Source: an uncultured Bacteroidales bacterium
GTDB taxonomy: Bacteria; Bacteroidota; Bacteroidia; Bacteroidales; Paludibacteraceae
NCBI GenBank assembly: GCA_900316845.1
Contig: ONEG01000006.1
Location: forward strand, 424 to 64,423
Length of the DNA stretch: 64,000 nt
Reading direction: 5' to 3'
Numbering within the stretch: the stretch's first letter is position 1; each line of letters begins with the position of its first letter. The position numbers were made by a program, and so were the translations under genes. Under the pieces are notes generated by a model. The model made no database searches and was not told the origin of the DNA. It saw only the letters and a program-made list of their open reading frames with translations. This document shows positions 26,661 to 48,590 of this stretch, piece after piece.

Positions 26661-27899
26661 ATGAACGGAGATCAGCTGATGGACGAGCTTTTCCAAGTGA
26701 TATCCTCCTATCGGAGTGATGACATCGATATACACGAAGCCTACGAAACCACTTCTGCTATGATTGCAGCCAATATGCAGCTTGGTTTCTGCCGCCAAAT
26801 AAACGAATACTCCCTTTCCAAAGAGAGTTGGATAATTCTTGTCTATGTCTGCACGGGTTACTATTACAGCCCGAAATTTACGATGGATAGTGATGAGTTC
26901 CGGGAGTTTTTTGATATGCGTTGCGGTCTTTCGCAGCTGCGACTTTTCCGCAGTAACAAGCACGAACTGCTCACAAAATCGATTCTAGAACCCGCCGGAG
27001 GAGAACTGGCTAATGCGAATGAGTGGTGCCTTTCACGCCGCGCAGCCAACGATCTGATGAGCGAACTGTGTCCTGTTACGGCGAAAAGCACCAAACAAGG
27101 CGTGATTGATGCGGAAAGTATCGGCAAGAAGGCTCTGTTCTACCCGACAAAGACCACCAGACAGGTTTCTGAGTTGGAGAGTTTGCTCTCGACGGAGAAG
27201 TTCCAACAAGTGCAGGAGAGCTTGGAGGCGCATGGTATGCGCAAAGGTTTCGCGTGCCTTTTCTATGGTACGCCCGGAACAGGAAAGACCGAGACCGTTC
27301 TGCAAATAGCCCGAAAAACGGGCCGCGATATCATGCAGGTAGATATGTCGCAGATGCGCGACAAGTACGTCGGTGAAAGCGAGAAGAACGTGAAGCAGAT
27401 CTTCACGCGTTACCGCCGGATTTGCAAAGAGAGTGATCAGACGCCTATTCTCCTCCTCAATGAAGCGGACGCCCTGCTCGGCGTGCGTATGACGAATGTG
27501 GAGCACTCGGTGGATCAGATGGAGAACACGATGCAGAATATCCTGTTGCAGGAAATGGAGAACTTCGACGGCATCCTGATTGCGACAACCAACCTTACGC
27601 AGAATCTGGATGGAGCGTTCGACCGTCGGTTCCTCTACAAAGTAGAGTTCCTCAAACCCACACCGGAGGAGAGCCGGCATATCTGGCAAGCCATGTTGCC
27701 GGAAATCAGCGAAGAGGATGCTTGGACACTCGCGAAGCAGTATGCTTTCTCCGGCGGCCAGATTGAAAATATTGCCCGCAAACAGATAGTGAACTCTATC
27801 CTCTTTCCTGAGGAAGGCAGAGATCTGAACAAAATCCGCCAGGCTTGTGACAGCGAGTATCTGAACAAAAAACAAACCCGCCCCATCGGCTTTTGCTGA
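26661..27899 (+). CDS. AAA+ ATPase (classic AAA clade)
   Basis: Walker A FYGTPGTGKTE, Walker B ILLLNEADAL, and a second region of homology ending FDRRF. The frame is open back to the TGA at 26586 (TTG at 26646, ATG at 26661). Confidence 0.8.
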   Translation: MNGDQLMDELFQVISSYRSDDIDIHEAYETTSAMIAANMQLGFCRQINEYSLSKESWIILVYVCTGYYYSPKFTMDSDEFREFFDMRCGLSQLRLFRSNKHELLTKSILEPAGGELANANEWCLSRRAANDLMSELCPVTAKSTKQGVIDAESIGKKALFYPTKTTRQVSELESLLSTEKFQQVQESLEAHGMRKGFACLFYGTPGTGKTETVLQIARKTGRDIMQVDMSQMRDKYVGESEKNVKQIFTRYRRICKESDQTPILLLNEADALLGVRMTNVEHSVDQMENTMQNILLQEMENFDGILIATTNLTQNLDGAFDRRFLYKVEFLKPTPEESRHIWQAMLPEISEEDAWTLAKQYAFSGGQIENIARKQIVNSILFPEEGRDLNKIRQACDSEYLNKKQTRPIGFC

Positions 27900-31325: not shown

Positions 31326-31391
31326 ATGCTATTAAATTTTTAAAGTTTCGCCCCCTTCTTTGTTCGGCATTGGGGCACTTTCCGATTTTGC

Positions 31392-31477
31392 GCGGCAAAG
31401 ATAATACTTTATTTTCAAATAAAAAAATAGAAGTTAATCTTTTTTGCAATAAGCCCTAATTAGCCATAAAGGTATTA
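31392..31477. repeat. cassette junction/promoter element, copy B
   Basis: Reads gcggcaaagataatactttattttcaaataaaaaaatagaagttaatcttttttgcaataagccctaattagccataaaggtatta. The -7 box TATCTTTG is the complement of 31396..31403. Confidence 0.9.
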
Positions 31478-31594: not shown

Positions 31595-32212
31595 ATGACT
31601 TATCAATCGTTTTATAATCAGTGGCATCATTTGGCTTGTTTTTCTATCACACAAGTGAGGGCAATATATCCGACATTTAACCGCCGGAACTATTCCGAAT
31701 GGCAGAAAGCGGGCTATATCGTTCCTTTGCGTCAAGGATGGTACGCCTTTGCGGATTATGTGAACAAGCCGGATTACGCACGCTATTTAGCGTCAAAGAT
31801 CTATACCCCATCGTATATCAGCCTGCATACCGCCTTGTCCTTTTACGGCATTATCCCGGAAGCAGTGGTAGCCATTACGAGTATCACTACGCGCAAAACA
31901 GCTCAGTTTGAGAACGTCTTTGCGTCTTACAGCTACCAAACAATCAAGCCTTCTCTGTTCTGGGGATATGAGCCCAAGCAACTATCCGACGGAAAGACCT
32001 ATCTATTAGCCACGCCGGAGAAAGCGCTGATTGACCTGCTTTACCTCTATCCGCAGTATTCGACGGAAGAAGAGATGCGTGAGTTGCGTCTGGATGAAGA
32101 TTTCATGCACAACGAGTTAGATAAGGAACGGCTTATCGAATATTCTACTCGCATTGGAAGTCCGATAATCACCAAGCGGGTACAACTCTTGCTCAAAACA
32201 CACGGATTATGA
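31595..32212 (+). CDS. AbiEi-like antitoxin / transcriptional regulator (type IV TA)
   Basis: The N-terminal wHTH-like region and the YISLHTALSFYGIIPE motif are typical of AbiEi_4-type proteins. It has a 4-nt ATGA overlap with the next gene. Confidence 0.8.
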   Translation: MTYQSFYNQWHHLACFSITQVRAIYPTFNRRNYSEWQKAGYIVPLRQGWYAFADYVNKPDYARYLASKIYTPSYISLHTALSFYGIIPEAVVAITSITTRKTAQFENVFASYSYQTIKPSLFWGYEPKQLSDGKTYLLATPEKALIDLLYLYPQYSTEEEMRELRLDEDFMHNELDKERLIEYSTRIGSPIITKRVQLLLKTHGL

Positions 32213-32991
32213 TTGATTTAACATACATACGCGGTTTCTATCCGCCGCAGATTGCCAATAATGCCAACTTTCAGAAGCATTTGCTCAAGGAATACATTGA
32301 GTGTCTGGCAATAGAATGGATTTCACAGTCGGCGTGGTCGGACAAGTTGGCTTTTATCGGCGGCACGAACTTACGGCTGATACAGGGTATTGACCGTTTC
32401 TCCGAAGATTTGGATTTTGATTGCAAGAACCTGAGCCAAGAGGATTTCGTCCAAATGACGGATGGTTTAATGCGCTATCTGACGCTACAGGGTTTAACGG
32501 TCGAGGCACGCGATAAAGAGAATCCGAACTTGACGGCTTTCCGTCGAAATGTCTATTTTCCGGAACTGCTCTTCTCGCTCCAACTAACGGGGCATCGGGA
32601 AGAACGTTTCTTAATGAAGATCGAGGCGCAAGACCAAGGTATCAGTTATCCGCGTGAAATGGCGACAATCAGTCGCTTAGGTTTTTATTTCCCAGTTCCT
32701 GTTCCAACGATTAGCATTCTCTTGTCCATGAAACTATCGGCTCTGTTGACTCGTCAGAAAGGCCGTGATTTTTACGATGTCCTTTTCTTGTGGCAACGCA
32801 CAAAGCCGGATTACGCATTCCTAAAGCAACGCCACGGCATAGAAAACGAGGAGCAGTTACGTACGCAACTCCAGGAAACCGTCGCTCATACGGACCTCAA
32901 AACCAAGCAGCGTGATTTTGAGCATCTGCTCTTTGAGCCCCGCAAAAGCGAGCAGATTCTTCATTTCCTGGAGATAATGGGAATAGCGTAG
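32209..32991 (+). CDS. AbiEii/AbiGii nucleotidyltransferase toxin (DUF1814)
   Basis: Contains the nucleotidyltransferase motif FIGGTNLRLIQGIDRFSEDLDFD. Confidence 0.85.
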   Translation: MIDLTYIRGFYPPQIANNANFQKHLLKEYIECLAIEWISQSAWSDKLAFIGGTNLRLIQGIDRFSEDLDFDCKNLSQEDFVQMTDGLMRYLTLQGLTVEARDKENPNLTAFRRNVYFPELLFSLQLTGHREERFLMKIEAQDQGISYPREMATISRLGFYFPVPVPTISILLSMKLSALLTRQKGRDFYDVLFLWQRTKPDYAFLKQRHGIENEEQLRTQLQETVAHTDLKTKQRDFEHLLFEPRKSEQILHFLEIMGIA

Positions 32992-33024: not shown

Positions 33025-33062
33025 TTTTTTGCAATTCACCCTAATTAGCCATAAAGGCATTA
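33025..33062. repeat. cassette junction element, partial copy D (direct repeat of 31440..31477)
   Basis: ttttttgcaattcaccctaattagccataaaggcatta matches ttttttgcaataagccctaattagccataaaggtatta at 34 of 38 positions. Confidence 0.9.
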
Positions 33063-33070
33063 GGAGGATA

Positions 33071-33658
33071 CTATTTCAATAGTTTCTCATACTTGCTGAT
33101 TGTGTCGTCAAAATACCACAACTTGCCATTGAGTGCTGGGTCATCGGACTTCTGCAGCATCTCCCGTATCGCGAGTGTAACGTCATATGCGGATTGAAGT
33201 TCTTCCTTAGGAGTTCTGGCATCGCAATAGCAATCCAAGCCGTTCGCGAGAATCCATAACAAGTCTATATCATCATCGGGAAAGCGAATAGAAGCCAATC
33301 GTTTTAACAACTCCGGAGTGATTATTCCCGAATCTTCTTTTTCTTCTCCATTTGAGAAAGAAAGGAATCTCTCTCTGTAGGAATAGTACGGGCTTATAGA
33401 CTTCCTGGACATGGCTAAATCTGTTCCGAAATAATCCTGAATTTCCTTCATTTGCCGGACTAACTGCAAGCGGGTTGCTTCGTCAATAGAGGTGTATGGT
33501 AGTACTTGCAGGAAATCATTAATCATTTCTATGGCCTCGAGTTCATTCTTATAGGTGATAATCATATCCGCGTCAAAACCTTCCACCATATACCATAGCA
33601 ACTTGCGCTGATACAAGTTGTCTATGAACTCTTTTATTTTCTGCTCAAACTCTGTCAT
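33071..33658 (-). CDS. hypothetical protein (195 aa)
   Basis: Last ORF of the co-directional cluster. Its N-terminal ~70 aa are paralogous to the 27921..28160 product. Confidence 0.55.
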   Translation of the reverse strand: MTEFEQKIKEFIDNLYQRKLLWYMVEGFDADMIITYKNELEAIEMINDFLQVLPYTSIDEATRLQLVRQMKEIQDYFGTDLAMSRKSISPYYSYRERFLSFSNGEEKEDSGIITPELLKRLASIRFPDDDIDLLWILANGLDCYCDARTPKEELQSAYDVTLAIREMLQKSDDPALNGKLWYFDDTISKYEKLLK

Positions 33659-33709
33659 GGATTTTTGAGGATGAATGCGGCATTTTCGCCGATTATTTGC
33701 TGTTTTATG

Positions 33710-35590
33710 TTATTTTGATACTCTGTATAATTCCTTCAAAATAACCACCATTGACCAGGTGTCGAGTGCGCAGTATTGGAGCAAGTCTTTGCGTGTTTGT
33801 GCTTCTTTTTCGGGAGACATGTCCTTCATCTTCGGGAAGATCTCCATCGCCTCACCGCCGTTATGCACACAGCCCGGCAATTTGTGATAATTGAGTGTCG
33901 GGTCATCGGGGAATAACGCCGGCAGCACTTTTTTGATGCTGAACGAACCATCCATCGCAGGGCGATAGTAAGCGCCATCGCGGAAGGGATCCAACAGATC
34001 TACGATGTTCTCACGAATCGCCAGTAGATGGTTGCTCAAATCAGGGAAAGCCTTTGCCATCTCTTTGAGACGCGATTTCTCAAAATTATCATTAAATACC
34101 ATAACGGTGACATCCATCGGGATATCTTTGCAGAGCTGCTCTGCTACTTCACGCATCGGATTCGCGCTATGCGCATCGGCGAGGAACTCGAAGTGCTCAC
34201 ATGTGTCGAATTCAGAATGCTGAATATGGAGCGAATACTGCGTAGGAATCTGCTGATAAGGATGCGTACCTTGATATTCAGGAATAGTAGGCTGGATGGT
34301 CTCGAAATCCAAGTGATAGATCGGATATTTTAGCCCCGCCAAGAACGCACGTATCTTCGCTTTGTCGATGATATCAACATTATGCAACGTGCTTTCTATT
34401 TGGATTCGCTGAATCTCATTTTGCTTGTTCTCTTTATTACAAAATTCCTTGTCTGCAAGTATATCCTCAAAAGAAGCTACACCTCTTTTGAAACACTTCA
34501 GCGCCGTTCTCCATTGCATTCCATACAAGTCAAATACACTCGGCGTAGGAACGTGATGCTGCTCCATGCAATAAGCCTTGAACGGGCAGGGATATGGTTT
34601 GTTGCAACCATTATTGAGGTCAGCAGATTCATACGCGAGTATAAGTTCCCTTTTTGCCAATTCAACAGAATCTGCCATCTTGGGAGATTCTGCATCTACC
34701 AATTTGGCCATATCATAGATATTGAACAGTTGCTTTATGTCCAAATCGCCGTCCAGGATATAGTGCTTATCCAACTGCATTAGGTATGTGCCGGTTACAT
34801 CAATGCCACATTTCTTCAACACGTATTTCTGGAAAGAGACATCCCAGATGTAAACCTCATCGGGCTTCTTTTCTTTTTTCTTTTTGGTTTCGTTCTCATC
34901 ATCAAGGTCAGACTCATAATCCTTTGCGGTAGAACTCTTTACCTCATAAATCGCCCATCCGCCTTTCTCGCGATGCAGCAGATCCACGGCACAATAACAG
35001 CCGTTTGCCTCAAACGCCGCTTCGCAGATGGTCTCAACCGAAGGATCAGCCATCAAGCGTTGCGTCTCTTCGAGCATAGCTGCGATATCCAAACTGCCAT
35101 CCGCCCTGCGCTTGGTTGCTTCGTGGTAGGTACCGAAATAGGTTTTCGCGAGATTACCTACTTCTATTCCGGCTTTGATGCGTGATTCCGGAATAGCTTC
35201 CTCAACAGCCTCTTCCGGCTTATTGATTTTCATCCACAAGCATTTCGGGCATTGCCGAAAGGCGGTGTAACGGGATTTGGTTAAGAGGATGGGCTCCGGT
35301 CTCGGCTTTTCAATTGGGTGGTCAAGATCTATCCAAAGTACATCAGCTTCTTGAAGAATAAAGCCGTTCCAAAATTCATACTTGAAATCGTATTCCTGCG
35401 TGAGTGTTTCCTGAAGCCATTGGTTCCAACCTTCTTCGTTGTCGGCATCCTCGGGATATTCTTCCAAGAACTCCTTACGCGCAGCATCTACCGCTTTGCG
35501 GTATTCTGCATATTCTTTCTCATCCAGTTCTATCTCCCATGTATCATACACTTCGGGATAGAATACTTTTGCTTTATAATATGTAGCCAT
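33710..35590 (-). CDS. DUF2779-like protein: Cas4/RecB-type PD-(D/E)xK nuclease with Cys cluster fused to a DEDD-type exonuclease-like domain
   Basis: Contains CPKCLW, then D...IYEVKSS (D/ExK), CNKPYPCPFKAYC, YHLDFETI (Exo I-like DxE), NDNFEKSRL and YCALDTW. Assignments are by motif only. Confidence 0.65.
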   Translation of the reverse strand: MATYYKAKVFYPEVYDTWEIELDEKEYAEYRKAVDAARKEFLEEYPEDADNEEGWNQWLQETLTQEYDFKYEFWNGFILQEADVLWIDLDHPIEKPRPEPILLTKSRYTAFRQCPKCLWMKINKPEEAVEEAIPESRIKAGIEVGNLAKTYFGTYHEATKRRADGSLDIAAMLEETQRLMADPSVETICEAAFEANGCYCAVDLLHREKGGWAIYEVKSSTAKDYESDLDDENETKKKKEKKPDEVYIWDVSFQKYVLKKCGIDVTGTYLMQLDKHYILDGDLDIKQLFNIYDMAKLVDAESPKMADSVELAKRELILAYESADLNNGCNKPYPCPFKAYCMEQHHVPTPSVFDLYGMQWRTALKCFKRGVASFEDILADKEFCNKENKQNEIQRIQIESTLHNVDIIDKAKIRAFLAGLKYPIYHLDFETIQPTIPEYQGTHPYQQIPTQYSLHIQHSEFDTCEHFEFLADAHSANPMREVAEQLCKDIPMDVTVMVFNDNFEKSRLKEMAKAFPDLSNHLLAIRENIVDLLDPFRDGAYYRPAMDGSFSIKKVLPALFPDDPTLNYHKLPGCVHNGGEAMEIFPKMKDMSPEKEAQTRKDLLQYCALDTWSMVVILKELYRVSK

Positions 35591-35681
35591 AGTTAGAAAT
35601 TATTTATTGCCCAAAGGTGGGGTAATGGAATTTGGGTAAGAGATAGGGCGTAGCATTAAAAGTATTAACTATTTAAAGTTG

Positions 35682-37973
35682 TTATTTCATTATATGCAAG
35701 GATTGCAATTTCTCTATTATCGCCTCATCAGCCAACACTTGTTGAGAGCAGTTTTTATCTGAGTATAAATATTTTCCCCCATTAGTAAGACCTATACAAA
35801 TATTATTAGTAGAAATTGATAGAGTATTAGAGTTGCCATTCTCTGGATACCAATCTAATATAATTGCTTTGTCTTGATCTATTTGCGACCACAAATATGC
35901 CAAGAATATTTCCCGATGTTGAGTATCTGATTGTAGTTTCTGACGAAGGAACATATGTTCTGTATTCGTATCATACCAAAGTTTCGAGTTGGATGCAAAC
36001 TCAAGTATTGATGGATTTCGAACTATATGTTTTCTCCAATCTTGAGGTTCAAATCGTTTTCTTAATTCTTCAAAAAGTTCATCAAATGTAACACAATCTG
36101 CAAATTCTGCATACCACAAATCTATGAGTTTCTTAATAACTTCTCCATAACTTGATTCCTGTGAGCGAAGGAAATTTTTGAAACTGCGGTCGCGATTGAA
36201 ATAATTTTCGCACAAATATAAATCTTCGGCACTCTTTTTCCAGTTTCCATAATTTTCCACACATAGCAAAGCCGCCCTTAATTTATATTCGTCAGAGATA
36301 GGAAATATTTTTTGAAGTTTCTCTGCATATGACTTAAATAATGCGAAAACAGGTTTTCCACTCGGTTGCATTGACCATTGAAGTGGAGCTATAATCTGCC
36401 CCCATAGATATGTATTATTTTCCAAATTTTCAATTTCTTCAAGCCAATTAGAGTCTGCCAATTGAACACTGGATTTAATTCGTTCTTCTTCTAACGACAC
36501 ATTGGCCAATCCCGAAATATTATCTAAATTGGATAAGAATTCACGCATGGAACTATTTTGAGTTCTATACTTTTTCCAGATATTTTCTATAGCCTCAATA
36601 GCTTTTCTTTCCTTTTCTGATTTATCAATTTGTTGCTGCGTGTTTCTTAACAAAACTGTATTACGGATAAAACGCATCCAATCATTAAATTCTTTAATAA
36701 GTTCATCCTTATTTAAAAGTTCTGTAGCAGAATACGTGCGCAAAAACAATATCATTGCAAAAAAGGCAACTTGTAAATCTTTTTCTGGATCTTTAAGATA
36801 TTCATCCCATAAAGACTTCTCCGGTAGCCATAGTATATTTAAAAAATCAGAAGCATTATGTATTTGCCCACCGTCAATGTAAAACAAGTTGTTGATATCT
36901 GTGATTAAACTTTCAAAATCAAGTTTCTCTGGAAAATTCACTTTGCGCTCAATAGTTCTTCGTTTCCATGCCAAATCACAATACATGGGTAAAACATTTT
37001 CAAAATCTAACTGCTTACCAATCATCCATAGTTCATAATCAACATCAACTCGGTTATAGAATTGAACACATATTATCCGTTGAATGAGTCGTTTTAACTG
37101 CATTTCAACTTTTCCCTCTACATCGTCATATGCTATATTTGGAATATCATTGATGTTTTTGTCTTTGCAATAATTCTGCCAAAAATAATTTATCCAAAGA
37201 CCATCTATTTGCGTTCTCCATTGCTTTTCTGTCTCACTTCCAGATAGACCTTGTATTTGCATTTCCTCTTCTAGCACCGATTTCATGATGTCAAAAGATG
37301 ATAATTGCTTTCCACGTGCATTCATCTTGACATATAATTCATCTCCCATATCAAACTCATCTAGATTAAGTAGATGAAATGATATGTTCTTCAAATTCTC
37401 ATAATGAGGGTCTTGATACTTGTTTTGGATTATTAAATTGTCAATTTCTTCAATAACCACCAACATTGATAATATACTTGGATCATACCGCCACTGCCAT
37501 TTAAACCACCCCTCCTTCATAAGGAAGAGTGATAAGGGCAACTCCTCTTTCTGTTTACAATAAGCACTCTTTTTTTTACATATTTCACTGGCGGAATGAC
37601 AAACTAACTCGTTGCAAAAATCAATAGTTGATTGTCTTGTTGCATATGAAAGAACTGCTTTTCCGTTCAATATCAAATCATTTTTAAAATTTTCAGGACA
37701 AAAAAACCAGTGCAATAAGAATAACGTGGTTAATCGTTGTTGACCATCAAGAGGTTCAAATGCGCCGTCTCTGTCATAACCATACACAAAATCCAAATGC
37801 AATCTATCTCCAGAAGGCGAATAAATCACTTTTAGTAAATCATTTAAAAATAATCTGCGAATCTCATTAACGCGAGTGGTTCTTCTGCCTTCGGCATAAT
37901 CTCGTTGGATTCCTGGGACTCTAATCATTTTATTCTTACACAAAGTAAGAAAGTTTTTTTCAAAAGTAACCAT
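35682..37973 (-). CDS. DUF262 (ParB/GmrS-like NTPase) protein with a long C-terminal region and no recognisable His-Me finger
   Basis: Contains IRVPGIQRDYAEG, LDGQQRLTTLFLL and MNARGKQLSSFDIMK. Its ATG overlaps the upstream stop (TAATG). Confidence 0.8.
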   Translation of the reverse strand: MVTFEKNFLTLCKNKMIRVPGIQRDYAEGRRTTRVNEIRRLFLNDLLKVIYSPSGDRLHLDFVYGYDRDGAFEPLDGQQRLTTLFLLHWFFCPENFKNDLILNGKAVLSYATRQSTIDFCNELVCHSASEICKKKSAYCKQKEELPLSLFLMKEGWFKWQWRYDPSILSMLVVIEEIDNLIIQNKYQDPHYENLKNISFHLLNLDEFDMGDELYVKMNARGKQLSSFDIMKSVLEEEMQIQGLSGSETEKQWRTQIDGLWINYFWQNYCKDKNINDIPNIAYDDVEGKVEMQLKRLIQRIICVQFYNRVDVDYELWMIGKQLDFENVLPMYCDLAWKRRTIERKVNFPEKLDFESLITDINNLFYIDGGQIHNASDFLNILWLPEKSLWDEYLKDPEKDLQVAFFAMILFLRTYSATELLNKDELIKEFNDWMRFIRNTVLLRNTQQQIDKSEKERKAIEAIENIWKKYRTQNSSMREFLSNLDNISGLANVSLEEERIKSSVQLADSNWLEEIENLENNTYLWGQIIAPLQWSMQPSGKPVFALFKSYAEKLQKIFPISDEYKLRAALLCVENYGNWKKSAEDLYLCENYFNRDRSFKNFLRSQESSYGEVIKKLIDLWYAEFADCVTFDELFEELRKRFEPQDWRKHIVRNPSILEFASNSKLWYDTNTEHMFLRQKLQSDTQHREIFLAYLWSQIDQDKAIILDWYPENGNSNTLSISTNNICIGLTNGGKYLYSDKNCSQQVLADEAIIEKLQSLHIMK

Positions 37974-39775
37974 TATAGATAGAATTTAAGGGTTTCAAAT
38001 AATTGTTCCTTATATGCTTGCCTATCAGTTTCATTCCACCGTATTATATCTAATTGGGAAGAACCCCTTTTAGCGCCCGTGTAGTATTTTAAAAACAAAT
38101 TACGAGTACATAGTGGAATAAATACACCGTTTTTATCATTTTGAATAATTATTGAGCGTTTACATGAGAAAGGTGCATTTTTATAACTACGATTAATACC
38201 ACAATTTAATAATGCCAAATTATCTATTGTATCTTTTTCTTCTCCAATAATATTGCTGTTATAGTATTTATATACTGCATCATAGAAATCCTTGAATACG
38301 TTATTTGAATCCTGATTCTCGGTTTTAAATTTATCGAGCAATTCTTTTCCTTGTTTCATTAACTGCTTAGCTTGTTCCATTGGATCGTATTGCAATTGCT
38401 CTATTACCAAATTTATCCATTCAATTTTATGTTTCAACTCTTGCATATTATTATCTTTCTGGGAGTCGACATGCTCCACATCCCATTCCTTCTTCTTAAA
38501 CTGTTCAAATGGAAATTTAAGATTGGATTTATTATACGACTCTATATTAAACAATAAAAGCATTTCTCTTATTTTGCTTAAATCAGTAGAATATTCCCAT
38601 TCCTCAAAAGGACGTTTCGTTTCTATACAATATTTAGAGCAATTTATTTTGCTTTTTATTAATTCTTGTAAAGATTTTATTAATAGATCTTCATCCATTT
38701 GAACTGCAGTTTTGTATACGCCTGCCTTAATATGTTGGGGCAACATTCCTTTCCATACTAAATATCCTACGTAATTATAGATACGGTTATCTTCATACCA
38801 ACGAAGAAACATATCATAAACTTTTTTTACTTCTTCCCATATATGCTCAAAACTATTAGAGGCGTTATCATATTTCTTTTGAAAAAATCTATATGCCTCC
38901 AGAGGGTCAGTCTTTTGATAATCAACATCAGCCACATAATCAAATAACACATCCATCCGAGTTCCTACATTTTCTCTTCTGTCACTAATAAAATACCAAA
39001 AATCATCTTTCTCAAATTGCTTCTCCATTATGTCCCATTCCATACTGAATCTATCCACATTTAATTGATTGTTATTAGGAGTTGTGGATTTAAATTTAAT
39101 ATAGAAAAGTGCTTTTATAAGTTCAGAACTAGTTAATGAAATCTTACCCTTGTTAAGTCGGTTGAAAACTTTGATTGCACTCAGATCTGAAACTATGGCA
39201 TCTTTATTTTCCTCTGAAACCACATACCATATAAACTTTACTTTTTTCTCATTGTCTCTATAAAATAATGCCTCTGCCATATTCCGTAAGGCGCGTTTAT
39301 AATCTTTTTTCTCTTCGCACCATTGAATAATCTTTTGTTGTGCTTTCATTAGATAGAAACTATCTATATTATCAAAGGGGCACAATGAATCAAAGTTAGG
39401 CGTAACACGTTCTATATAATTGACGGTATATAACTGGAAGTCCTCTGCCTCTTCTTTATTAAAACGTTTGATAAATTGTTTTAAAATCAACAACATTGTG
39501 GTAAGACGTTGTTGTCCGTCTAATACTTCCCATTCATTTTTATTTTGCCCTCTACGCACAACTAATGGCTGAAGGAAATATGATTCTTCTTTGTTATCTT
39601 GAGATACAAAATTATAAATATCATCTAACATATCAATAACATGTTTTTCTTCCCATCTATATCCTCTTTGAAAAGAGGGTATTTGGAAGACATAAGGTGC
39701 CTGTTGACCTTGCAATAGAAATGCTACTGGCAGTGTATCAAAGTCCTGTAGCGTGTCTTTTAATAAATCATTCAT
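37973..39775 (-). CDS. GmrSD-family DUF262 + DUF1524 (HNH/His-Me finger) protein
   Basis: Contains IPSFQRGYRWE, LDGQQRLTTMLLIL and FNRLNKGKISLTSSELIK. The C-terminal nuclease motifs are WDVEHVDSQ and IDNLALLNCGINRSYKN. Confidence 0.85.
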   Translation of the reverse strand: MNDLLKDTLQDFDTLPVAFLLQGQQAPYVFQIPSFQRGYRWEEKHVIDMLDDIYNFVSQDNKEESYFLQPLVVRRGQNKNEWEVLDGQQRLTTMLLILKQFIKRFNKEEAEDFQLYTVNYIERVTPNFDSLCPFDNIDSFYLMKAQQKIIQWCEEKKDYKRALRNMAEALFYRDNEKKVKFIWYVVSEENKDAIVSDLSAIKVFNRLNKGKISLTSSELIKALFYIKFKSTTPNNNQLNVDRFSMEWDIMEKQFEKDDFWYFISDRRENVGTRMDVLFDYVADVDYQKTDPLEAYRFFQKKYDNASNSFEHIWEEVKKVYDMFLRWYEDNRIYNYVGYLVWKGMLPQHIKAGVYKTAVQMDEDLLIKSLQELIKSKINCSKYCIETKRPFEEWEYSTDLSKIREMLLLFNIESYNKSNLKFPFEQFKKKEWDVEHVDSQKDNNMQELKHKIEWINLVIEQLQYDPMEQAKQLMKQGKELLDKFKTENQDSNNVFKDFYDAVYKYYNSNIIGEEKDTIDNLALLNCGINRSYKNAPFSCKRSIIIQNDKNGVFIPLCTRNLFLKYYTGAKRGSSQLDIIRWNETDRQAYKEQLFETLKFYL

Positions 39776-39886
39776 ATAAATATTTTTTTAAGTTCTAATA
39801 TAATTTAGAACCTCAGTTAATAACATTCCGATTCGCAACTGCTCATACATATTTCTTTCTCGTCAAAAGAGACACGAATGAGGGCT

Positions 39887-41251
39887 CTAATGTGTTCTGT
39901 TTCCATTCTTATCTATGGTATATTCCTCACCATCTTTCTGAACCCTATATGTTCCATCACTATTTTTTTTAATCTCCTTATATATAAGCGGTACTTGTTC
40001 TTTCCCTTGTTTATTTACAAGACCACATTGACCTGACTGAGAACCGCTTTCTACTAAAAACAATCCATTCTCATCACAAAAACAAACGTGTCCATACTTA
40101 AAGGGAACTATTACATGCAGCTGTTTATCAACTACCCCCCATTTGTCGTTTCTACGTATAAGATATAAACCATCAAGACCTTGTCTAAGACATGGAGTAT
40201 TATCTTTCCTCAAAATGGGGATACCATTACTTCCTTGTTTATAAGTCTTGTTCTTTGGCGACACAATCACATTTATTGTTTCGGATATATAAGCGAGATC
40301 GTAAACTCTATAACAACCATCAGAGAGTTCATCACATCTAAATCTATCTGCGAAGTATATATTTTGGGGATTAGCTCCATATCGGCGACAGATTTCCATC
40401 TGATCTATTCCCGTCCAATCACCATCCAAACCTAAGGTATCTGTTTGTTTGTCATAGAAGTAAGACAAATTATGCCACTGAGGAAAAATATTCTTTCCTC
40501 CCAATACTATCGGGTTTGAGGCCAAACTTTGTGGTAAAGATATAGGATTGTTTTTCCACGATGGAATGACATAATCTGCCAGTTGAATCTTATACGATTG
40601 CAAGTAGTCACGCAATGTTGCATCTCCTTGCAAATATTGATCCATCAACTTGGCGCCATATTTATAGCACGTCTGTTTAATACTCACATCGTTATATGCC
40701 CAATCATAGTAACTACTTTTAGTTTCTTTCAAATAGAGAAGCATTCCGAACTCTGCTAATGGTTCTTCTACAAATAGAACGTATGGATACTTTTCGTGCC
40801 CGGAACGATTGAAATAGGCATGCATCGTCTCATGAGCAAACGTAGAGACAAGTAATTCGTCCATATGTTTACCACCATACTCTTGCCGCATTTCTTCAGG
40901 GAAAAGTTTTATTTGATTTTTCTTCGGATCATACAAGCCACGAAGCCGCATTGTCCGCCATGCTTCTATATTTTGACTTATTATATCAAGATTTCGTTCG
41001 GCCTGATTTCGTTCTTCCATGTAAACATCAGCTTGCTTTTTTTTCGCATTCCAATAGTCCTGCGCTTCTTCTAACTCACGTGGTATAGATCTTGTGATAA
41101 TACCCGGCTCAATTATGACATCTACCTTTAACTTTGTTAAAATATTATCTATCGATCCAATCGTGTCAAGATAAAAAGGAACTGCGGCACATTGCTTAAG
41201 CAAATCTAACTGTTGCTGTGATAATAATGAGTGGTCATCAATAATTGTCAT
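39887..41251 (-). CDS. HExxH metallopeptidase-like (ImmA/IrrE-like spacing) protein with C-terminal WG repeats
   Basis: Contains FAHETMHAYF followed ~17 aa later by EEPLAEFG. The C-terminal repeats are NDKWGVVDKQLHVIVPFKY and GLVNKQGKEQVPLIYKEI. Confidence 0.6.
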   Translation of the reverse strand: MTIIDDHSLLSQQQLDLLKQCAAVPFYLDTIGSIDNILTKLKVDVIIEPGIITRSIPRELEEAQDYWNAKKKQADVYMEERNQAERNLDIISQNIEAWRTMRLRGLYDPKKNQIKLFPEEMRQEYGGKHMDELLVSTFAHETMHAYFNRSGHEKYPYVLFVEEPLAEFGMLLYLKETKSSYYDWAYNDVSIKQTCYKYGAKLMDQYLQGDATLRDYLQSYKIQLADYVIPSWKNNPISLPQSLASNPIVLGGKNIFPQWHNLSYFYDKQTDTLGLDGDWTGIDQMEICRRYGANPQNIYFADRFRCDELSDGCYRVYDLAYISETINVIVSPKNKTYKQGSNGIPILRKDNTPCLRQGLDGLYLIRRNDKWGVVDKQLHVIVPFKYGHVCFCDENGLFLVESGSQSGQCGLVNKQGKEQVPLIYKEIKKNSDGTYRVQKDGEEYTIDKNGNRTH

Positions 41252-41352
41252 AAATGTTTTAGATTTTTAAAGTTGCACTTACTCTTTTCCGGATTGCCTT
41301 GTCTCACTCACGTTCGAACGAATGCGGCATCATCCAATATATTGTGAGTTTA

Positions 41353-41823
41353 TTATTTTTTGACCATTTGCCATTCTCCTTCTTCATCCGAAAATAGCGG
41401 ATAGTATTGTTCCGCCTCTTCAAGAGGCATGGCTTTGTCTAAATTTTTGACGATAGATTTATATAGATCTAAAAAATTAAGATCGCAATATAGGTACGCA
41501 TCTTTTCCCTTACTATCTTTGTAACAAAGAGGTTGGAATTTATCATCTGGACTTGGTTCATTCCACTCCGCATAAGATTTTAGTTGTATGGTTCCATCAA
41601 AAGCGCCTACAGCCCATATCACGTGGTCTTCCGTATAGAGTACATCTTCACTCTCCGGAGCAAATAAGATGCAGTTTCCTTTTGGATTCTTACTCAAGAT
41701 TTCGTAACACTCGGCTAATGCTTGCAAGCCGATTGCATTAATTTGAGATTTAATCTCCTTTATCTGCGCATAAAGGGGTGTTACCATTTCTTCGAATTTG
41801 TTCGGATTCAGTTTTGTTTCCAT
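41353..41823 (-). CDS. hypothetical protein (156 aa)
   Basis: ORF co-directional with its neighbours. No motif recognised. Confidence 0.5.
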   Translation of the reverse strand: METKLNPNKFEEMVTPLYAQIKEIKSQINAIGLQALAECYEILSKNPKGNCILFAPESEDVLYTEDHVIWAVGAFDGTIQLKSYAEWNEPSPDDKFQPLCYKDSKGKDAYLYCDLNFLDLYKSIVKNLDKAMPLEEAEQYYPLFSDEEGEWQMVKK

Positions 41824-41910
41824 ACTATTATAGTTTTAAAGTTTTACCTAATCTTATATTGATTTTCTCATCTCGCAATGCAAGAACGATTACACGGCTT
41901 TCTCCAATTA

Positions 41911-42249
41911 TTATTCGATTATTAAAAGGAAGTGATACCCCTGTATTTCGATACAATAATTGTATTCTACATCCTCATATTCCATTTCGTCTTCTACTTC
42001 AAATGCCTCTTGAACTATCCATTTTCCTGATTGTAACGGATAGTAGGCACCGCCATAAACGATAGCCAATTCTCCCTGTTCGTTTTCATGGAGTTCGCCA
42101 TCGACCACCACGTTTTCATACGTGTTAGAAATTTGTTTATGCAATTCAGGATTGTCTGCGCGTAAAGCCATTATGGCGTCCTGCTCAATTGCACCTCCTA
42201 TGCAAATAACAAATTTTGAGGATTTTTTCCAAGATGATTTACCATTCAT
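41911..42249 (-). CDS. hypothetical acidic protein (112 aa)
   Basis: First ORF downstream of cassette promoter copy C. Confidence 0.5.
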   Translation of the reverse strand: MNGKSSWKKSSKFVICIGGAIEQDAIMALRADNPELHKQISNTYENVVVDGELHENEQGELAIVYGGAYYPLQSGKWIVQEAFEVEDEMEYEDVEYNYCIEIQGYHFLLIIE

Positions 42250-42280: not shown

Positions 42281-42360
42281 GCTGCAAAGATAATACTTTA
42301 TTTTCAAATTAAAAAATAGAAGTTATTCTTTTTTTCATTTTGCCATAATTAGCCATAAAG
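42281..42360. repeat. cassette junction/promoter element, copy C
   Basis: Reads gctgcaaagataatactttattttcaaattaaaaaatagaagttattctttttttcattttgccataattagccataaag. By hand alignment it is about 87% identical to copy B. The -7 TATCTTTG is the complement of 42285..42292. Confidence 0.9.
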
Positions 42361-42421
42361 TTTTACTTACTTGCTTACGAGCGACATACGACTCACATAC
42401 GAGACGATAGCGACAAACTAT

Positions 42422-44155
42422 TTATACCAGACACAGTGCTTGTTTTAATAATTGCTTGCGTGCATCAACAAAAGTTCCGAAATCTGCAATATCAATAGAT
42501 AACTTCTTGAAGAAATGATCTTGGGGATATTTGATTTGATCTGCCGGAGTTGCATTGTTTAGCCAATCTTTCAAAGGTTTCTTATTCTTGGAGCGATTGG
42601 TATCATTATCCAATAATTCGAGATTTGCAACGGTGTCATACGTAATTCCGTCGTTCGCAACATTTGCATCGTTAGGAGTATTAAAACTAATTGTACTTAA
42701 TGTTGCAGGAGTAAATGTTGCTTTGGGATGCATATGATCCACATCGTATGCCTGTCCTGCCACCGGAGTCATACACAACCCGCTTGATGCGCCCAAGGCA
42801 TAAATGATATTCAAAACAGGGAACGCGTTCTGTTTCCTGGTTGCTAAAAAATTATCAACATCTGCGTTTGTAATGATTAGTTTAGTATACGTACTTTCAA
42901 TTTCATTATAAGGGAAGTGGTTGTTTGAGGAAGAAGTATTTATGATATCTCTTATATTCTTCAAAATCTCATCCGTCCCTGCTTCATATAAGTTTTTGAG
43001 AATGGCACGATACAGATATTTTCTCATGTCTATATATACGCCACTCATCGCGTTTGTTGATTGGATGGCTGTATGTGAAAGTTTATGCTTGTATATATAA
43101 TAGACCAGAGGAATAACTGCTAATTTTGTAGTCAAGCCTTTTTCTAACAGATGAAAATCAGCCACCAAGTCAAATGCTTTTTCCACACTATCCATTATCA
43201 GTTGGCTATTCATATATATGGATTGCGGGATATTGGGTGTAGTGGCAGTTGCCATAAAATCGGATGGTTGTACACTAAGGGTATTGCCAAATAACATCAA
43301 GAACATCTTGAATACCCAATCTTTATCCACCTCATAGTTCTTTTTTTCCACTAAATCGATTATATCTCCCACATAATCCCGTGCACTAATCGTATAACCA
43401 TTATTTGCCCAACTAACTGTAAGGGCAGACATTAACAGATCACCTTTCTTAAGGACATATCCGCCACTATTAGTACGAACAAAGATTTCCAACACATCAT
43501 CTATATTATTGCTGTTTATCTCGTAATAATTGATCACTGCATTGTTATTTACCAATGCCCACAACAGTTGAATGGAGGTTTGCGCATATTCATTATCTTG
43601 TAATCCTAACTTATTTAATGTGTTTATCATATTAGACCCAGAAAGAATATCTTTCACTTTGAACCATATTTCACCGTTCTTTTGATTGCTCGCCAGTTTG
43701 GTGGGCGTTAAGAATTGAAAATCATATTTCAATTCAGAATTCGTTCGTGGTTTATCTAAACGAAGATATAATTCCGCAGCTTGCTTTCCAGATGGCGTTT
43801 TGTAGGAACCGTATAAACCGATCCATAAACTAGTTAAACGCTGCTGACCGTCTATCACTATCTCATATGATTCATTTGGTATTGCAGCTTTATGATTGAA
43901 TATAGGATTAGGAGTTCCGCTTATATGGTTTGCCGGTAAGAATTGATAAAAAGCTATCGGTTGATTAGGAAGATTATTCGTGTTCCAAAACATCATGGTA
44001 TTTATTGGATAGTCCTGCATCAAACTATCAAACAATTCGCATATATCTCTTGTTTTCCAAACAAATTCGCGCTGCAGAGCAGGGAGGAGAAGTTTATTAG
44101 AAGGTATCTTGCTTAAAACTCCGGTAATTGAATTGCTTAAAATTCTAGGTGTCAT
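42422..44155 (-). CDS. GmrSD-family DUF262 + DUF1524 protein (third DUF262 paralogue)
   Basis: Contains LPALQREFVWK, IDGQQRLTSLWIGL and VRTNSGGYVLKKGDLL. The C-terminal motifs are YDVDHMHPKA and LELLDNDTNRSKN. Confidence 0.85.
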   Translation of the reverse strand: MTPRILSNSITGVLSKIPSNKLLLPALQREFVWKTRDICELFDSLMQDYPINTMMFWNTNNLPNQPIAFYQFLPANHISGTPNPIFNHKAAIPNESYEIVIDGQQRLTSLWIGLYGSYKTPSGKQAAELYLRLDKPRTNSELKYDFQFLTPTKLASNQKNGEIWFKVKDILSGSNMINTLNKLGLQDNEYAQTSIQLLWALVNNNAVINYYEINSNNIDDVLEIFVRTNSGGYVLKKGDLLMSALTVSWANNGYTISARDYVGDIIDLVEKKNYEVDKDWVFKMFLMLFGNTLSVQPSDFMATATTPNIPQSIYMNSQLIMDSVEKAFDLVADFHLLEKGLTTKLAVIPLVYYIYKHKLSHTAIQSTNAMSGVYIDMRKYLYRAILKNLYEAGTDEILKNIRDIINTSSSNNHFPYNEIESTYTKLIITNADVDNFLATRKQNAFPVLNIIYALGASSGLCMTPVAGQAYDVDHMHPKATFTPATLSTISFNTPNDANVANDGITYDTVANLELLDNDTNRSKNKKPLKDWLNNATPADQIKYPQDHFFKKLSIDIADFGTFVDARKQLLKQALCLV

Positions 44156-44265
44156 AATATTATTATTATTTATAAAAGTTTTGCCTACTCTTTTTCGGAT
44201 TTTCGGCTTCCTCCATTAATTGTATTTTTAGGTTGTTTCTGCATCTATATAGTCAAAATCAGACT

Positions 44266-44335
44266 GGCGAGACACTAACGAGAGAGAATCGAGTCGAGAG
44301 TATTTCGAGGGTTTATCGAGGGTATATCGAGAGCA
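44266..44335. repeat. degenerate CGAG-rich tandem repeats in the long leader of the 42422..44155 gene
   Basis: Reads ggcgagacactaacgagagagaatcgagtcgagagtatttcgagggtttatcgagggtatatcgagagc. Confidence 0.7.
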
Positions 44336-45259: not shown

Positions 45260-45340
45260 GCGACAAAGATACAATAAAAAATCAAAAGACGCAAAGGTTT
45301 GACCCTTTACGCCCTAATTAGCCCCAATTTAACGAGTGAA
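45260..45340. repeat. cassette junction/promoter element, copy E (family 2)
   Basis: Reads gcgacaaagatacaat...cgcaaaggtttgaccctttacgccctaattagccccaatttaacgagtgaa. The 51-nt core at 45290..45340 matches 47181..47231 at 50 of 51 positions. Confidence 0.9.
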
Positions 45341-45400
45341 CGAAACAATCGTTCGAGATAGTTCGAGAAAAGAATTAACGAGTGAATGAATGAGTGAATT
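45331..45400. repeat. ACGA-rich degenerate tandem array
   Basis: Reads aacgagtgaacgaaacaatcgttcgagatagttcgagaaaagaattaacgagtgaatgaatgagtgaatta. Confidence 0.7.
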
Positions 45401-45405
45401 ATTTG

Positions 45406-45681
45406 TTACTCAGTAATATTCTGCCAAATTGCATTACAAGCAAGGCTAAGCAACAATACAATCCATGGCCATTTAAGAGACAAGTATATCTGTGTCTTTC
45501 CACGGACACTCATGATAAAAAGCACGAGTAGCCATATAGCCATCACCGGCCATGGGGGAAAACGATACAAGCTGTCCAAAATGCGGCCATCCAGCAAGAG
45601 CAACATAGCCCGCTGGAAGCCGCACAAAGGACAGCTTATACCAAAGAGTTGCTTATATGCACAGGGCAGTAACAAGAACAC
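45406..45681 (-). CDS. DUF2752 family membrane protein
   Basis: Contains the N-terminal CAYKQLFGISCPLCGFQRA motif typical of DUF2752. Confidence 0.7.
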   Translation of the reverse strand: MFLLLPCAYKQLFGISCPLCGFQRAMLLLLDGRILDSLYRFPPWPVMAIWLLVLFIMSVRGKTQIYLSLKWPWIVLLLSLACNAIWQNITE

Positions 45682-47147: not shown

Positions 47148-47231
47148 GCGAGCGCAAAGATACAACAAAATAACGAAAGGCGCAAAGGTTTGACCCTTTA
47201 CGCCCTAATTAGCCCCATTTTAACGAGTGAA
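47148..47231. repeat. cassette junction/promoter element, copy F (family 2)
   Basis: Reads gcgagcgcaaagatacaac...cgcaaaggtttgaccctttacgccctaattagccccattttaacgagtgaa. The -7 TATCTTTG is the complement of 47155..47162. Confidence 0.9.
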
Positions 47232-47288
47232 GGAATTAACGAATGAACGAATTAACGAATGAACGAATGAACGAATGAACGAATGAAG
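47221..47288. repeat. tandem array of GAATGAAC / AATTAACG units at the right edge of the island
   Basis: Reads taacgagtgaaggaattaacgaatgaacgaattaacgaatgaacgaatgaacgaatgaacgaatgaaggg. Confidence 0.9.
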
Positions 47289-47322
47289 GGTGTTTAATGT
47301 TTAGATGGAGATGGAAGAAGTA

Positions 47323-48534
47323 TTACTCGGCAAGCGGTTTTTGCTGAATAATCATTGTATCGCCGTTAAGGTTTACATACATTATCGGATAATCTTTATA
47401 GATGATTTCCAAGCGCGGGAGGTCACGGGTATAGGTAACAAGGTATTGCTTTTGCAGTTGTTCCTCATATTGAGGATAGGACTTCGCTAATTTGTCTCGC
47501 GTTTGGTGCATCTGCGTAGCATAGCGATTTGTCATAGTGATGCCTTCATTCATACTCTTTACCGGCATATTCCTGAGCGAATCGGAATAAGTGCGGTACA
47601 AGGCGCTATACTGCCGTTCTGCCCTACTCTTTACATCCAGCCAAACGGAGTCAACAACAGGTTTTGCAGGAACAATAACCACCACTGTGTCGGTCTGTAT
47701 CTCTATTGGTTGCACCGTTTCCTTCGGGCTTGGCAAGAATACTATGACAAATGCCACAATAGCAGCTAACGCAAGAGCCAAAGGCAGTAACCATCTCATC
47801 CGCCAATAGCGGTGAAGCGCAGCACGGACTTGGCGGACGGAAGTGTAACGGCTTCTATCGGAGGCAAGGCAACGACGGATAATTGGTTTAGCCGAATGCG
47901 GGAAAAGAAGTGCCAACATCTTGCCTAAGGCATAGATGTCCCGCTCAGGCAACAAGGTATCGGACGGCAGTTGCTCCGGGACGCTGATTGACGGCGATGT
48001 GCCGATATTCTTAGCTATATAGGCTTCATTATCCGCAAAGCCGAAATCAATCAGCCGCACATGATTGCCGGAGTCGTTAATAAGGATGTTAGAAGGCTTG
48101 AGATCACCGTGGACTATCTGGCGTTCATGGAGGAAAACCAAGGCTTCCATTAATTCGTCCGCTACGCGCCGACGCTCTGTACAGGAGGGCTTTTCTGCTA
48201 TGAATTTATCCAATGGGCGACCATGGATGTATTCCATGAGGATAGCTCGCCCTAACTGCGGATCGTCCACCATGGATATTGTCTGAACCACATAGATTGA
48301 GTCCAGACGGTGCATGATCTCAAACTCACGTTCCAACAGGAGTTGATTGCGAGTCCGTTCGCCTTCGGTGGGCTTGGCAGCCTTCAGAACGACCCATTTG
48401 CCGCCCATTTGCGCACGATAAATCAGATTGTGCCCGGAGTCAGACAACAACTCATAATCCGTAAGGTGATCCACGCCTAATTCTTGCGAACTAAGCGGAC
48501 GGATAGGACCCGATGTGAACGAATTTGTATCCAT
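47323..48534 (-). CDS. serine/threonine protein kinase with TM segment and C-terminal extracytoplasmic domain
   Basis: Catalytic loop HGDLKPSNILI and the DFG motif LIDFGFA. The ATG at 48534 lies downstream of a minus-strand TACTTTTG box. Confidence 0.85.
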   Translation of the reverse strand: MDTNSFTSGPIRPLSSQELGVDHLTDYELLSDSGHNLIYRAQMGGKWVVLKAAKPTEGERTRNQLLLEREFEIMHRLDSIYVVQTISMVDDPQLGRAILMEYIHGRPLDKFIAEKPSCTERRRVADELMEALVFLHERQIVHGDLKPSNILINDSGNHVRLIDFGFADNEAYIAKNIGTSPSISVPEQLPSDTLLPERDIYALGKMLALLFPHSAKPIIRRCLASDRSRYTSVRQVRAALHRYWRMRWLLPLALALAAIVAFVIVFLPSPKETVQPIEIQTDTVVVIVPAKPVVDSVWLDVKSRAERQYSALYRTYSDSLRNMPVKSMNEGITMTNRYATQMHQTRDKLAKSYPQYEEQLQKQYLVTYTRDLPRLEIIYKDYPIMYVNLNGDTMIIQQKPLAE

Positions 48535-48542
48535 TGACGGTG

Positions 48543-48590
48543 CAAAAGTACAAAAAAATTTGCGTATATGCAAATAATTTTATAATTTTG
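48543..48590. promoter_or_regulatory. divergent promoter pair sharing a palindromic -33 region
   Basis: TACTTTTG is the complement of 48543..48550 (kinase). TTTGCGTATATGCAAA lies at 48559..48574 and TAATTTTG at 48583..48590 (gene at 48607). Confidence 0.6.

Follow-up and report, generated by a model that had tools for sequence, protein, structure and literature searches.

The DNA considered here is a 64,000-nucleotide stretch from an uncultured Bacteroidales bacterium (called the window below, always at its full length), and the locus of interest is a cluster of seven open reading frames (ORFs) on its minus strand, between positions 33,071 and 42,249. An earlier sequence-only reading had proposed that these genes may form a multi-component defence system. 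The present analysis leads to a different view: the region is probably a mosaic of same-orientation cassettes in a strain-variable island, and its only multi-gene unit is the gene pair g600+g763, a putative two-protein Type IV module. Each of the seven ORFs was found exactly where it had been placed before:

41911-42249, minus strand: g112, 112 amino acids (aa)
41353-41823, minus strand: g156, 156 aa
39887-41251, minus strand: g454, 454 aa, HExxH motif and C-terminal WG repeats
37973-39775, minus strand: g600, 600 aa, DUF262+DUF1524, GmrSD-like subunit
35682-37973, minus strand: g763, 763 aa, DUF262-only partner subunit
33710-35590, minus strand: g626, 626 aa, DUF2779
33071-33658, minus strand: g195, 195 aa

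The successive intergenic gaps, from g112 to g195, are 87, 101, 111, -1 (overlap), 91 and 51 nt, and the claim that none of them exceeds 110 nt holds for five junctions and fails for one, the gap of 111 nt. The described TAATG overlap can be seen in the sequence at 37973, where the stop codon of g600 and the start codon of g763 share one base. Concerning base composition, three G+C classes were distinguished: g600/g763 with 31-34% (31.2% and 33.5%, respectively), g112/g156/g454 with 37-38%, and g195/g626 with 42-46%. The jump in composition reported for this region is real but had been overstated, since g626 has 45.5% G+C overall and about 50% is reached only at its third codon positions (51%). 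No family match was obtained for g112 or g195 in Pfam, NCBIfam, PADLOC or PHROGs, and none for g156 in Pfam.

The product of g600 carries DUF262 and DUF1524 in one chain. Pfam returned GmrSD_N with E = 8.8e-32 and GmrSD_C with 5.5e-4, the latter at 20.3 bits and therefore under the 23-bit gathering cut-off. The N-terminal DUF262 part presents the NTPase/sensor motifs Q36-R37, D86-G-Q-Q-R90 and F204..N208-x-G-K, and the C-terminal DUF1524 part presents the His-Me-finger residues E434-H435, N519 and N528. All these motif residues (QR, DGQQR, F...N-x-G-K and E-H...N...N) are invariant in the 77 family members compared (77/77), and the assignment of g600 to the GmrSD class of enzymes stands on both the domain content and this conservation. 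Regarding known models, the HEC-06, Orf5 and SspE profiles of PADLOC matched mostly the N-terminal ~80-100 residues and at most about half of the length, the match to the HEC-06 models being confined to residues ~29-126, and PHROGs matches covered only the DUF262 part. Neither g600 nor g763 gave a full-length match to BrxU/HEC-05 or HEC-06 in PADLOC v2.0.0.

For g763, Pfam showed GmrSD_N alone (1e-18) and no PADLOC v2 model matched. Its family conserves the invariant motifs QRDYAxGR, DGQQR and KMNxRG, with DGQQR in 77/77 members. The QR, DGQQR and FxxxN-type motifs are invariant in both the g600 and the g763 families (77/77 each), whereas E-H...N...N is invariant in the g600 family only. The protein begins with DUF262, continues with a long, helical middle part and ends in an alpha/beta domain, with no nuclease motif and no DUF1524 signal by Pfam or hhalign. 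When the two family profiles were aligned with hhalign, only the DUF262 core aligned (97% probability), and the C-terminal domains gave 0.3%. The AlphaFold2 (AF2) model of g763 reached a predicted local distance difference test score (pLDDT) of 87 and its best fold match was SspE (probability 0.96), while the model of the C-terminal domain (residues 570-763, pLDDT 82) had no meaningful match in the PDB. Sequence searches of the PDB with g763, g600 and g626 found nothing significant either. The description of g763 as a DUF262-only paralogue coupled to g600 is borne out by GmrSD_N as the sole domain hit and by the TAATG overlap. In the C-terminus of g763, an "EHM" in a beta-beta-alpha-like stretch at residues 664-697 was considered as a cryptic His-Me finger, and this was ruled out by the 0.3% in hhalign against the g600 DUF1524 and by the lack of any His conserved at >=90% in the 77 sequences.

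Just before the pair, a perfect palindrome was found:

39792..39811, minus strand: GTTCTAA-ATTATA-TTAGAAC, perfect 7-bp stem, 17-36 nt 5' of the g600 start codon

It occurs as a single copy in the window, with 0 matches expected by chance, and it may be an operator, a hairpin or a regulatory site.

The association between both genes was followed across genomes. In a scan with one genome per species, at least 593 loci matched, and the best 80 were kept for a pair-centred analysis, with neighbours detected by tblastn and family hidden Markov models (HMMs). Wherever the contig reaches far enough, the gene that immediately precedes the g763 homologue is a g600 homologue, in the 80 genomes and in seven metagenome loci as well, and the upstream gene is the nuclease-bearing one in all the pair-centred homologous loci. 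On the contigs of the closest relatives, a GmrSD_N protein of ~600 aa always precedes the g763 homologue. The junctions, in ~80 loci, are mostly overlaps of -1, -4, -8 or -11 nt (range -1 to -17) or gaps of a few nucleotides. The hosts belong to Bacteroidota, Spirochaetota, Firmicutes, Alpha-, Beta- and Gammaproteobacteria, Actinobacteria, Campylobacterota, Verrucomicrobiota and Candidate Phyla Radiation (CPR)/candidate phyla, and the pair is also found on plasmids; both genes are annotated merely as "DUF262 domain-containing protein". A word-index search with g763 gave more than 6,700 relatives of ~750-900 aa, all of them with DUF262 only, and the length range of the g763-type family is 660-940 aa. 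Moreover, a phmmer search with residues 240-763 retrieved 143 cluster representatives at E <= 0.001, in which the full-length proteins are mostly of 700-900 aa and the match lies C-terminal to the expected position of DUF262.

The remaining members of the cluster behave differently in the same sample. No homologue of g112, g156, g454 or g195 was found in the 80 pair-centred genome loci, and a DUF2779 gene lies beside the pair in three of the 80 (L047, L062 and L078; L numbers denote individual homologous loci). The idea of a seven-gene multi-component system is not upheld by these counts, given that all seven families together were not encountered beyond this genome and that only g600 and g763 co-occur generally outside the lineage. 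What lies downstream of the pair varies even between close relatives: a DUF2779 gene in L001, a PLD protein and a reverse transcriptase in L003, and a SACS-domain protein with helicases in L005. The pair of the window shares 67-68% DNA identity with the pairs of L001 and L003, whose flanks are unrelated. The commonest neighbours in the 80 loci are WYL regulators (10), RNase_T-type proteins (9), HsdR (7), YgjP-like peptidases (7), HsdM (6) and HsdS (5).

In Bacteroidota, including Flavobacteriia and Sphingobacteriia, the gene for an RNase_T-type DEDD 3'-5' exonuclease of ~160-185 aa can lie directly 5' of the pair. This gene is immediately upstream in L023, L027, L033, L045, L048, L059, L065 and L067, it is downstream and on the opposite strand in L063, and it also precedes the pair on plasmid NZ_CP033935.1 (L185, 3628-8211). 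A WYL/WCX regulator is often found within a few kb of these loci. Such loci suggest that the pair also exists in an operon of three or four genes.

Exact copies of window proteins are present on 41-54 metagenomic contigs, and the GroEL cluster bears the label Paludibacteraceae; the source is a Bacteroidales bacterium of rumen or gut, probably of that family. In the related strains L088-L092, g156 (93%) is found with a 330-aa gene, a different pair and the same DUF2779 gene (97%); the L088 pair, located upstream of this same DUF2779 gene, is 36% identical to g600 and 30% identical to g763. In L093/L094, g156 (94%) sits between two other DUF2779 genes with no pair, and g195 (91%) is found behind a homologue of m279. 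A 461-aa gene that precedes one of the DUF2779 genes of L093 was checked and is not a g454 relative. The only relative found for g112 is 34% identical and lies on the opposite strand in L093. At the DNA level, the ends of homology coincide with the borders of the cassettes (41855..41257, 35652..33711 and 33696..33025). For g156, the identity of 92.8-94% to L088/L093 is confined to 41855/41844..41257/41248, and its cassette, from ~41855 to 41257, includes the "decayed leader" that had been noticed upstream of g454. For g626, homology to the related strains covers positions 35652..33711 of the window, and for g195 it covers 33696..33025, with a copy that is 91-93% identical in L093. No DNA match to window positions 35653-41256, which hold g454 and the pair, was present in the related strains L088/L093.

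These cassettes are accompanied by a repeated promoter/leader element, whose copy in front of the cluster had been named cassette promoter C:

42281..42360, minus strand: repeated promoter/leader element ("cassette promoter C"), GGCTAATTATGG core and -7 box TATCTTTG at 42285-42292
26029-26040, 31454-31465, 33039-33050, 42343-42354, 45312-45323 and 47203-47214, plus-strand coordinates: copies of the core

The inter-cassette element has a length of ~80-110 nt and consists of the GGCTAATTAGGG core and a TAnnTTTG box, and several copies are also found in L088 and L093. The invariant core is GGCTAATTA(G/T)GG, with a palindromic CTAATTAG, and it is followed ~45-55 nt later by the Bacteroidota -7 box TA(T/C)CTTTG. 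The core occurs six times in the window, where 0.85 copies would be expected, and always in the same orientation, and two subtypes of the element can be told apart (26029/31454/42343 versus 45312/47203). The element at 42281..42360 and the stretch 31391-31471 share 90% identity. At 33039 the copy has no -7 box, and an element remnant (33025-33062) follows g195. On the other side of the cluster g112 sits directly behind the element, as g156 does behind its own copy in L093. The element behaves like a portable cassette promoter. Tandem repeats of ~8 nt, of the TTCGTTCA / TTAACGAA type, were observed just 5' of promoter elements at 47220-47291 and 45367-45406, and comparable short repeats, degenerate and with CG in them, precede g577 (~44220-44325), a neighbouring gene described below, and g112 (~42365-42420).

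The rearranged copies of g156, g626 and g195, the homology breaks and the repeated element lead to the conclusion that the seven genes are at least six separately shuffled units lying between two copies of the repeated element. The caution that the cluster could consist of neighbouring independent cassettes, already expressed in the sequence-only reading, turned out to be well founded, with near-identical g156, g626 and g195 in other neighbourhoods of related strains.

The identification of g626 as a DUF2779 protein is firm (PF11074, E = 4.9e-46, 156.5 bits versus a 23.3-bit cut-off), and its match to the Cas4 model of PADLOC is weak (2.4e-4, residues 201-267). The DUF2779 domain has been interpreted as a Cas4-like PD-(D/E)xK nuclease plus a DEDD-like 3'-5' exonuclease (PMC3985635, PMC13621843). 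With 53 bits against a cut-off of 225 bits, g626 is no equivalog of the NCBIfam UU173_fam. Furthermore, g626 is extended at its N-terminus by a module of ~95 aa (35306-35590) that is foreign to ordinary DUF2779 proteins: all 80 metagenomic homologues (80/80) align only from residue ~89-152 onwards, most of them from 97-103. The same module was seen as a separate 95-aa ORF, 95% identical, 5' of another DUF2779 gene (L093, 7451-7738) and as a 55%-identical version fused to a g198-like protein (L088, 12787-13068); further sites are L114 2897-3100 and L170 3562-3708. Apparently this is a mobile N-terminal module, or else a small ORF, common to several cassettes.

As for g454, the presence of WG repeats (WG_beta_rep, E = 1.3e-9) and of HExxH (H140 E141 H144), which is invariant in 25 homologues, agrees with its previous description as an ImmA/IrrE-like metallopeptidase-WG protein; the ImmA/IrrE part of that description finds no support, as no Peptidase_M78/ImmA profile matched in Pfam, NCBIfam or PADLOC. 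The family profile found no homologue in the PDB. A relation to the YgjP/SprT-like peptidases of Type I restriction-modification (R-M) loci was tried and discarded (hhalign 1%). Because HExxH is invariant, it is plausible that g454 could be a metallopeptidase of some other family. Its family comprises ~520 proteins and was seen only in Bacteroidales-type arrays.

In some of these arrays, orthologous g454 genes and orthologous 700-aa DUF2779 genes flank different contents, namely nothing in L181, a pair in L175 and a 243-aa gene with McrBC in L177, with mutual identities of 57-63% for g454 and 58-88% for the 700-aa DUF2779 protein. The window has the same layout of g454, module and DUF2779, with another DUF2779 subfamily:

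L181: 9001-13107
L175: 7001-15115
L177: 7001-14790
Window: 33710-41251

Between g454 and DUF2779 there seems to be a slot or hotspot where alternative Type IV modules insert upstream of DUF2779; this pattern turns neither g454 nor DUF2779 into a component of the pair. In the DUF2779-centred sample, formed by the 80 closest metagenomic loci, a same-strand pair was found in 0/32 loci with >=4.5 kb upstream, and one pair was divergent. In L078, a Campylobacter metagenome-assembled genome (MAG), a DUF2779 gene directly after the stop codon of the pair is split into two ORFs (12062-13540), which is either a pseudogene or an assembly frameshift.

Regarding the mode of action of the pair, the closest precedent is TgvAB (VC1767/VC1766) from the island VPI-2 of V. 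cholerae, a two-protein GmrSD-like Type IV restriction system embedded in a Type I locus (PMC11014532; PMC11411939). TgvA contains DUF262 only and TgvB contains DUF262+DUF1524, their ORFs overlap by 8 bp and both are required; mutations of DGQQR in TgvA or TgvB, and of the His-Me residues in TgvB, abolish defence against phages with glucosyl-hydroxymethylcytosine (glucosyl-hmC) (PMC11014532, PMC11411939). Hence, the combination of a DUF262+DUF1524 protein with a DUF262-only protein has a precedent and follows a published logic. By analogy with TgvAB, BrxU and SspE, g600 and g763 could form a hetero-oligomer in which both ParB-like DUF262 domains, with their DGQQR motif, would bind and hydrolyse nucleoside triphosphates (NTPs) and sense modified foreign DNA. 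This NTP-coupled recognition would license the single His-Me-finger nuclease of the complex, the DUF1524 of g600, to cut the invader. The contribution of g763 would be a second NTPase/sensor, and its family-specific C-terminal two-thirds probably set specificity or regulate the activity. Under the same analogy, both genes would be needed and the activity would depend on DNA modification.

Several points weigh against restricting the functional unit to these two genes or against the mechanism proposed for them. Only one intergenic TAnnTTTG box, TATCTTTG at 42285-42292, precedes any of the seven genes, in agreement with the statement that cassette promoter C was the only canonical one, and no terminator-like or intrinsic terminator site was found between the seven genes on the coding strand, so co-transcription of all seven is possible; a scan for sigma-70-type promoters gave 49 sites versus 36 expected, a type of scan that is uninformative for Bacteroidota. 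DUF2779 genes appear downstream of the pair above chance (in the window, L088, L175, L001, L047, L078 and, at ~4.8 kb, L062), and the pair and DUF2779 could have a looser functional connection. Moreover, the dependence on modification, the complex and the need for two genes would follow from analogy throughout, and two differences stand against the analogy: the gene order is reversed, with the nuclease-bearing subunit first here and tgvA first in PMC11014532, and BLASTP and the family HMMs align g600 and g763 with TgvA and TgvB essentially over the DUF262 core only. This last comparison was made with the N-terminal ~400 aa of the TgvA and TgvB proteins of three species (Table S5, PMC11411939), and in it the g600 HMM scored 61-82 bits to both proteins and the g763 HMM 18-39 bits, with just 18-24 for TgvA.

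All seven genes could be one co-evolved and co-transcribed multi-component defence system, as would fit co-directional and tightly spaced genes with a single canonical -7 box and no internal terminator-like site, and the order g454, pair, DUF2779 even recurs in L175/L176. However, the L175 pair is just 29-32% identical and its DUF2779 just 26% identical to those of the window, so this recurrence reflects a shared insertion slot and not a shared system. Since g112, g156, g454 and g195 are missing from all 80 pair-centred loci, g156, g626 and g195 appear at 91-97% identity in different neighbourhoods and the cluster has three composition classes, a seven-gene system is hardly credible, and a false lead can be removed. 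The pair is conserved and the other five genes are absent or reshuffled elsewhere, which argues for g600+g763 as the functional unit; g112, g156, g454, g626 and g195 would be neighbouring cassettes and no components of the module, and they may be co-transcribed with it.

A more serious rival, still unlikely, is that DUF2779, possibly together with a g454-type protein, is a conserved partner of interchangeable Type IV modules and might, for instance, digest the DNA ends that these leave, in which case the unit would be g600+g763+g626 with or without g454. Three divergent pair variants adjoin DUF2779 (window, L088 and L175), and so do the close relative of the pair in L001, the Campylobacter pair in L078 (0-nt gap) and a Piscinibacter pair (L047). 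Next to DUF2779 there are also BrxU-like genes (L139 and, with a 4-nt gap, L133) and McrBC (L177, L137 and L155); in the DUF2779-centred sample, a Type IV gene lies within 5 kb upstream in ~5 of the 43 DUF2779 loci with >=2.5 kb upstream. An RNase_T-type DEDD exonuclease is near the pair in 9/80 genomes and on plasmid NZ_CP033935, and the orthologues of g454 and DUF2779 that enclose nothing, a pair or McrBC (L181, L175 and L177) can be read in the same sense. The DUF2779 proteins would then be recurrent accessories of Type IV restriction, with GmrSD-like pairs, BrxU-like enzymes and McrBC plugged in beside them and, in Bacteroidales arrays, slotted between the HExxH-WG protein and DUF2779; their exonuclease would finish off the cleaved invader DNA, a role to which we give a similarly low probability, and the stand-alone RNase_T-type exonuclease of the pair operon in Flavobacteriia would be an equivalent arrangement. 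Against this, DUF2779 accompanies the pair in just three of 80 genomes, none of the 32 DUF2779 loci with enough upstream sequence has a same-strand pair, and g454 is confined to Bacteroidales arrays and also present without DUF2779 (L182). The arrays are also dense in DUF2779 (two per 20 kb in L093) and defence genes cluster generally, so a shared island or hotspot explains the adjacency without functional coupling. On this balance, g626 is regarded as an independent cassette, possibly accessory to Type IV restriction modules, and the recurrence of such modules beside DUF2779 or RNase_T-type exonucleases offers a testable hint as to what DUF2779 does.

The unit could also be smaller than two genes. 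Every motif of an autonomous GmrSD enzyme is present in g600, and its single-chain relatives BrxU, HEC-06 and Eco94GmrSD work alone; g600 could then be self-sufficient, with g763 as an independent paralogue acting as a decoy or guard against IPI*-like anti-restriction, or as a sensor with its own effector. The authors of the TgvAB work raise a role in countering inhibitors for the DUF262-only protein. Nevertheless, the strict adjacency, the fixed order and the stop/start overlap over phyla argue for stoichiometric co-expression and joint function, neither TgvAB gene works alone, DGQQR mutants of the nuclease-less subunit abolish defence, and DGQQR is invariant in 77/77 g763 members. A self-sufficient g600 is for these reasons considered very improbable, and the two-protein module within a cassette mosaic is the preferred explanation of the locus.

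The cassettes are part of a low-G+C island at ~25-48 kb, with 39.8% G+C versus 51.6% in the flanks. The island adjoins the origin region, with a cumulative GC-skew minimum at ~46-47 kb and dnaA at 53279-54649 on the minus strand. No tRNA gene marking an integration site was found. The neighbours of the cluster are the following:

42422..44155, minus strand: g577, 577 aa, single-chain BrxU/HEC-05-type protein (PADLOC HEC-05 8.7e-134, full length)
31595..32991, plus strand: AbiEi/AbiEii toxin-antitoxin defence pair (PADLOC 1.5e-73 / 8.1e-100, full length), convergent with the cluster

Both agree with the neighbours named by the sequence-only reading, AbiE and a third GmrSD-like gene. BrxU and the tested HEC-05 representative share 99.2% identity (preprint 10.1101/2024.01.29.577857), and g577 is a separate, already-classified stand-alone Type IV restriction gene. 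An AAA ATPase at 26646-27899 (plus strand) matches IetA of the Iet system (PADLOC 2.1e-29), with no adjoining IetS-like protease ORF seen, and in 10/80 DUF2779-centred metagenome loci a homologue of this ATPase is encoded no more than a few kb from a DUF2779 gene. At the 5' edge of the island, a Ser/Thr protein kinase (47323-48573, minus strand) matches the PD-T4-6 and mad6 models of defence kinases (E ~1e-24 to 1e-26), and a kinase of similar type is found at the array edge in L181. With the BrxU-like g577, AbiE, the IetA-like ATPase and the PD-T4-6-like kinase, the view of the region as a defence island is well supported.

As a whole, the island resembles the rAID-1 arrays of gut Bacteroidales (bioRxiv 10.1101/471110) in its co-directional, low-G+C, strain-variable and mostly small genes and in its repeated intergenic sequences. 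It differs from them in holding recognised anti-phage genes (those encoding BrxU-like, AbiE, IetA-like and PD-T4-6-like proteins) and in having no XerD-like tyrosine recombinase among the window ORFs scanned. An assignment to the rAID type was accordingly rejected, as no tyrosine recombinase or Phage_integrase-family ORF was present among the 40 window ORFs scanned with Pfam.

Concerning the pair, the single-chain GmrSD enzymes (Eco94GmrSD/EcoCTGmrSD, BrxU = HEC-05, HEC-06 and SspE) share with g600 the arrangement of DUF262, helical linker and DUF1524 and the same catalytic motifs, and SspE is also the best structural match of the g763 model. These enzymes are homo-oligomers of one protein, whereas here a nuclease-less DUF262 paralogue is strictly co-inherited, and the models built on them match g600 only in part and g763 not at all. 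The finding points to a very widespread two-gene GmrSD-like module, the second subunit of which has no model in PADLOC v2.

The likeness to TgvAB is closer. In both cases the genes are adjacent with overlapping stop and start codons, both proteins have a DUF262 domain bearing the QR, DGQQR and FxxxN-type motifs, and the DUF1524 His-Me nuclease is present in just one of them, here g600. Some members of the pair family are located inside Type I R-M operons, with hsdM/hsdS upstream and hsdR/YgjP-like genes downstream, and the family is scattered widely over phyla. In addition to the gene order and the limited alignment already discussed, the differences are that the g763 family has a helical middle region and a C-terminal alpha/beta domain of its own and that the pair of the window lies outside any Type I R-M locus. 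The pair is therefore treated here as one that would work like TgvAB, not as a demonstrated member of the TgvAB family nor as a specific orthologue. It echoes the unexplained logic of TgvAB, where a GmrSD-type enzyme, although complete, requires a DUF262 partner that lacks a nuclease, and, as an independent lineage with the opposite gene order, it offers a useful second case for exploring why two NTPase/sensor subunits are used.

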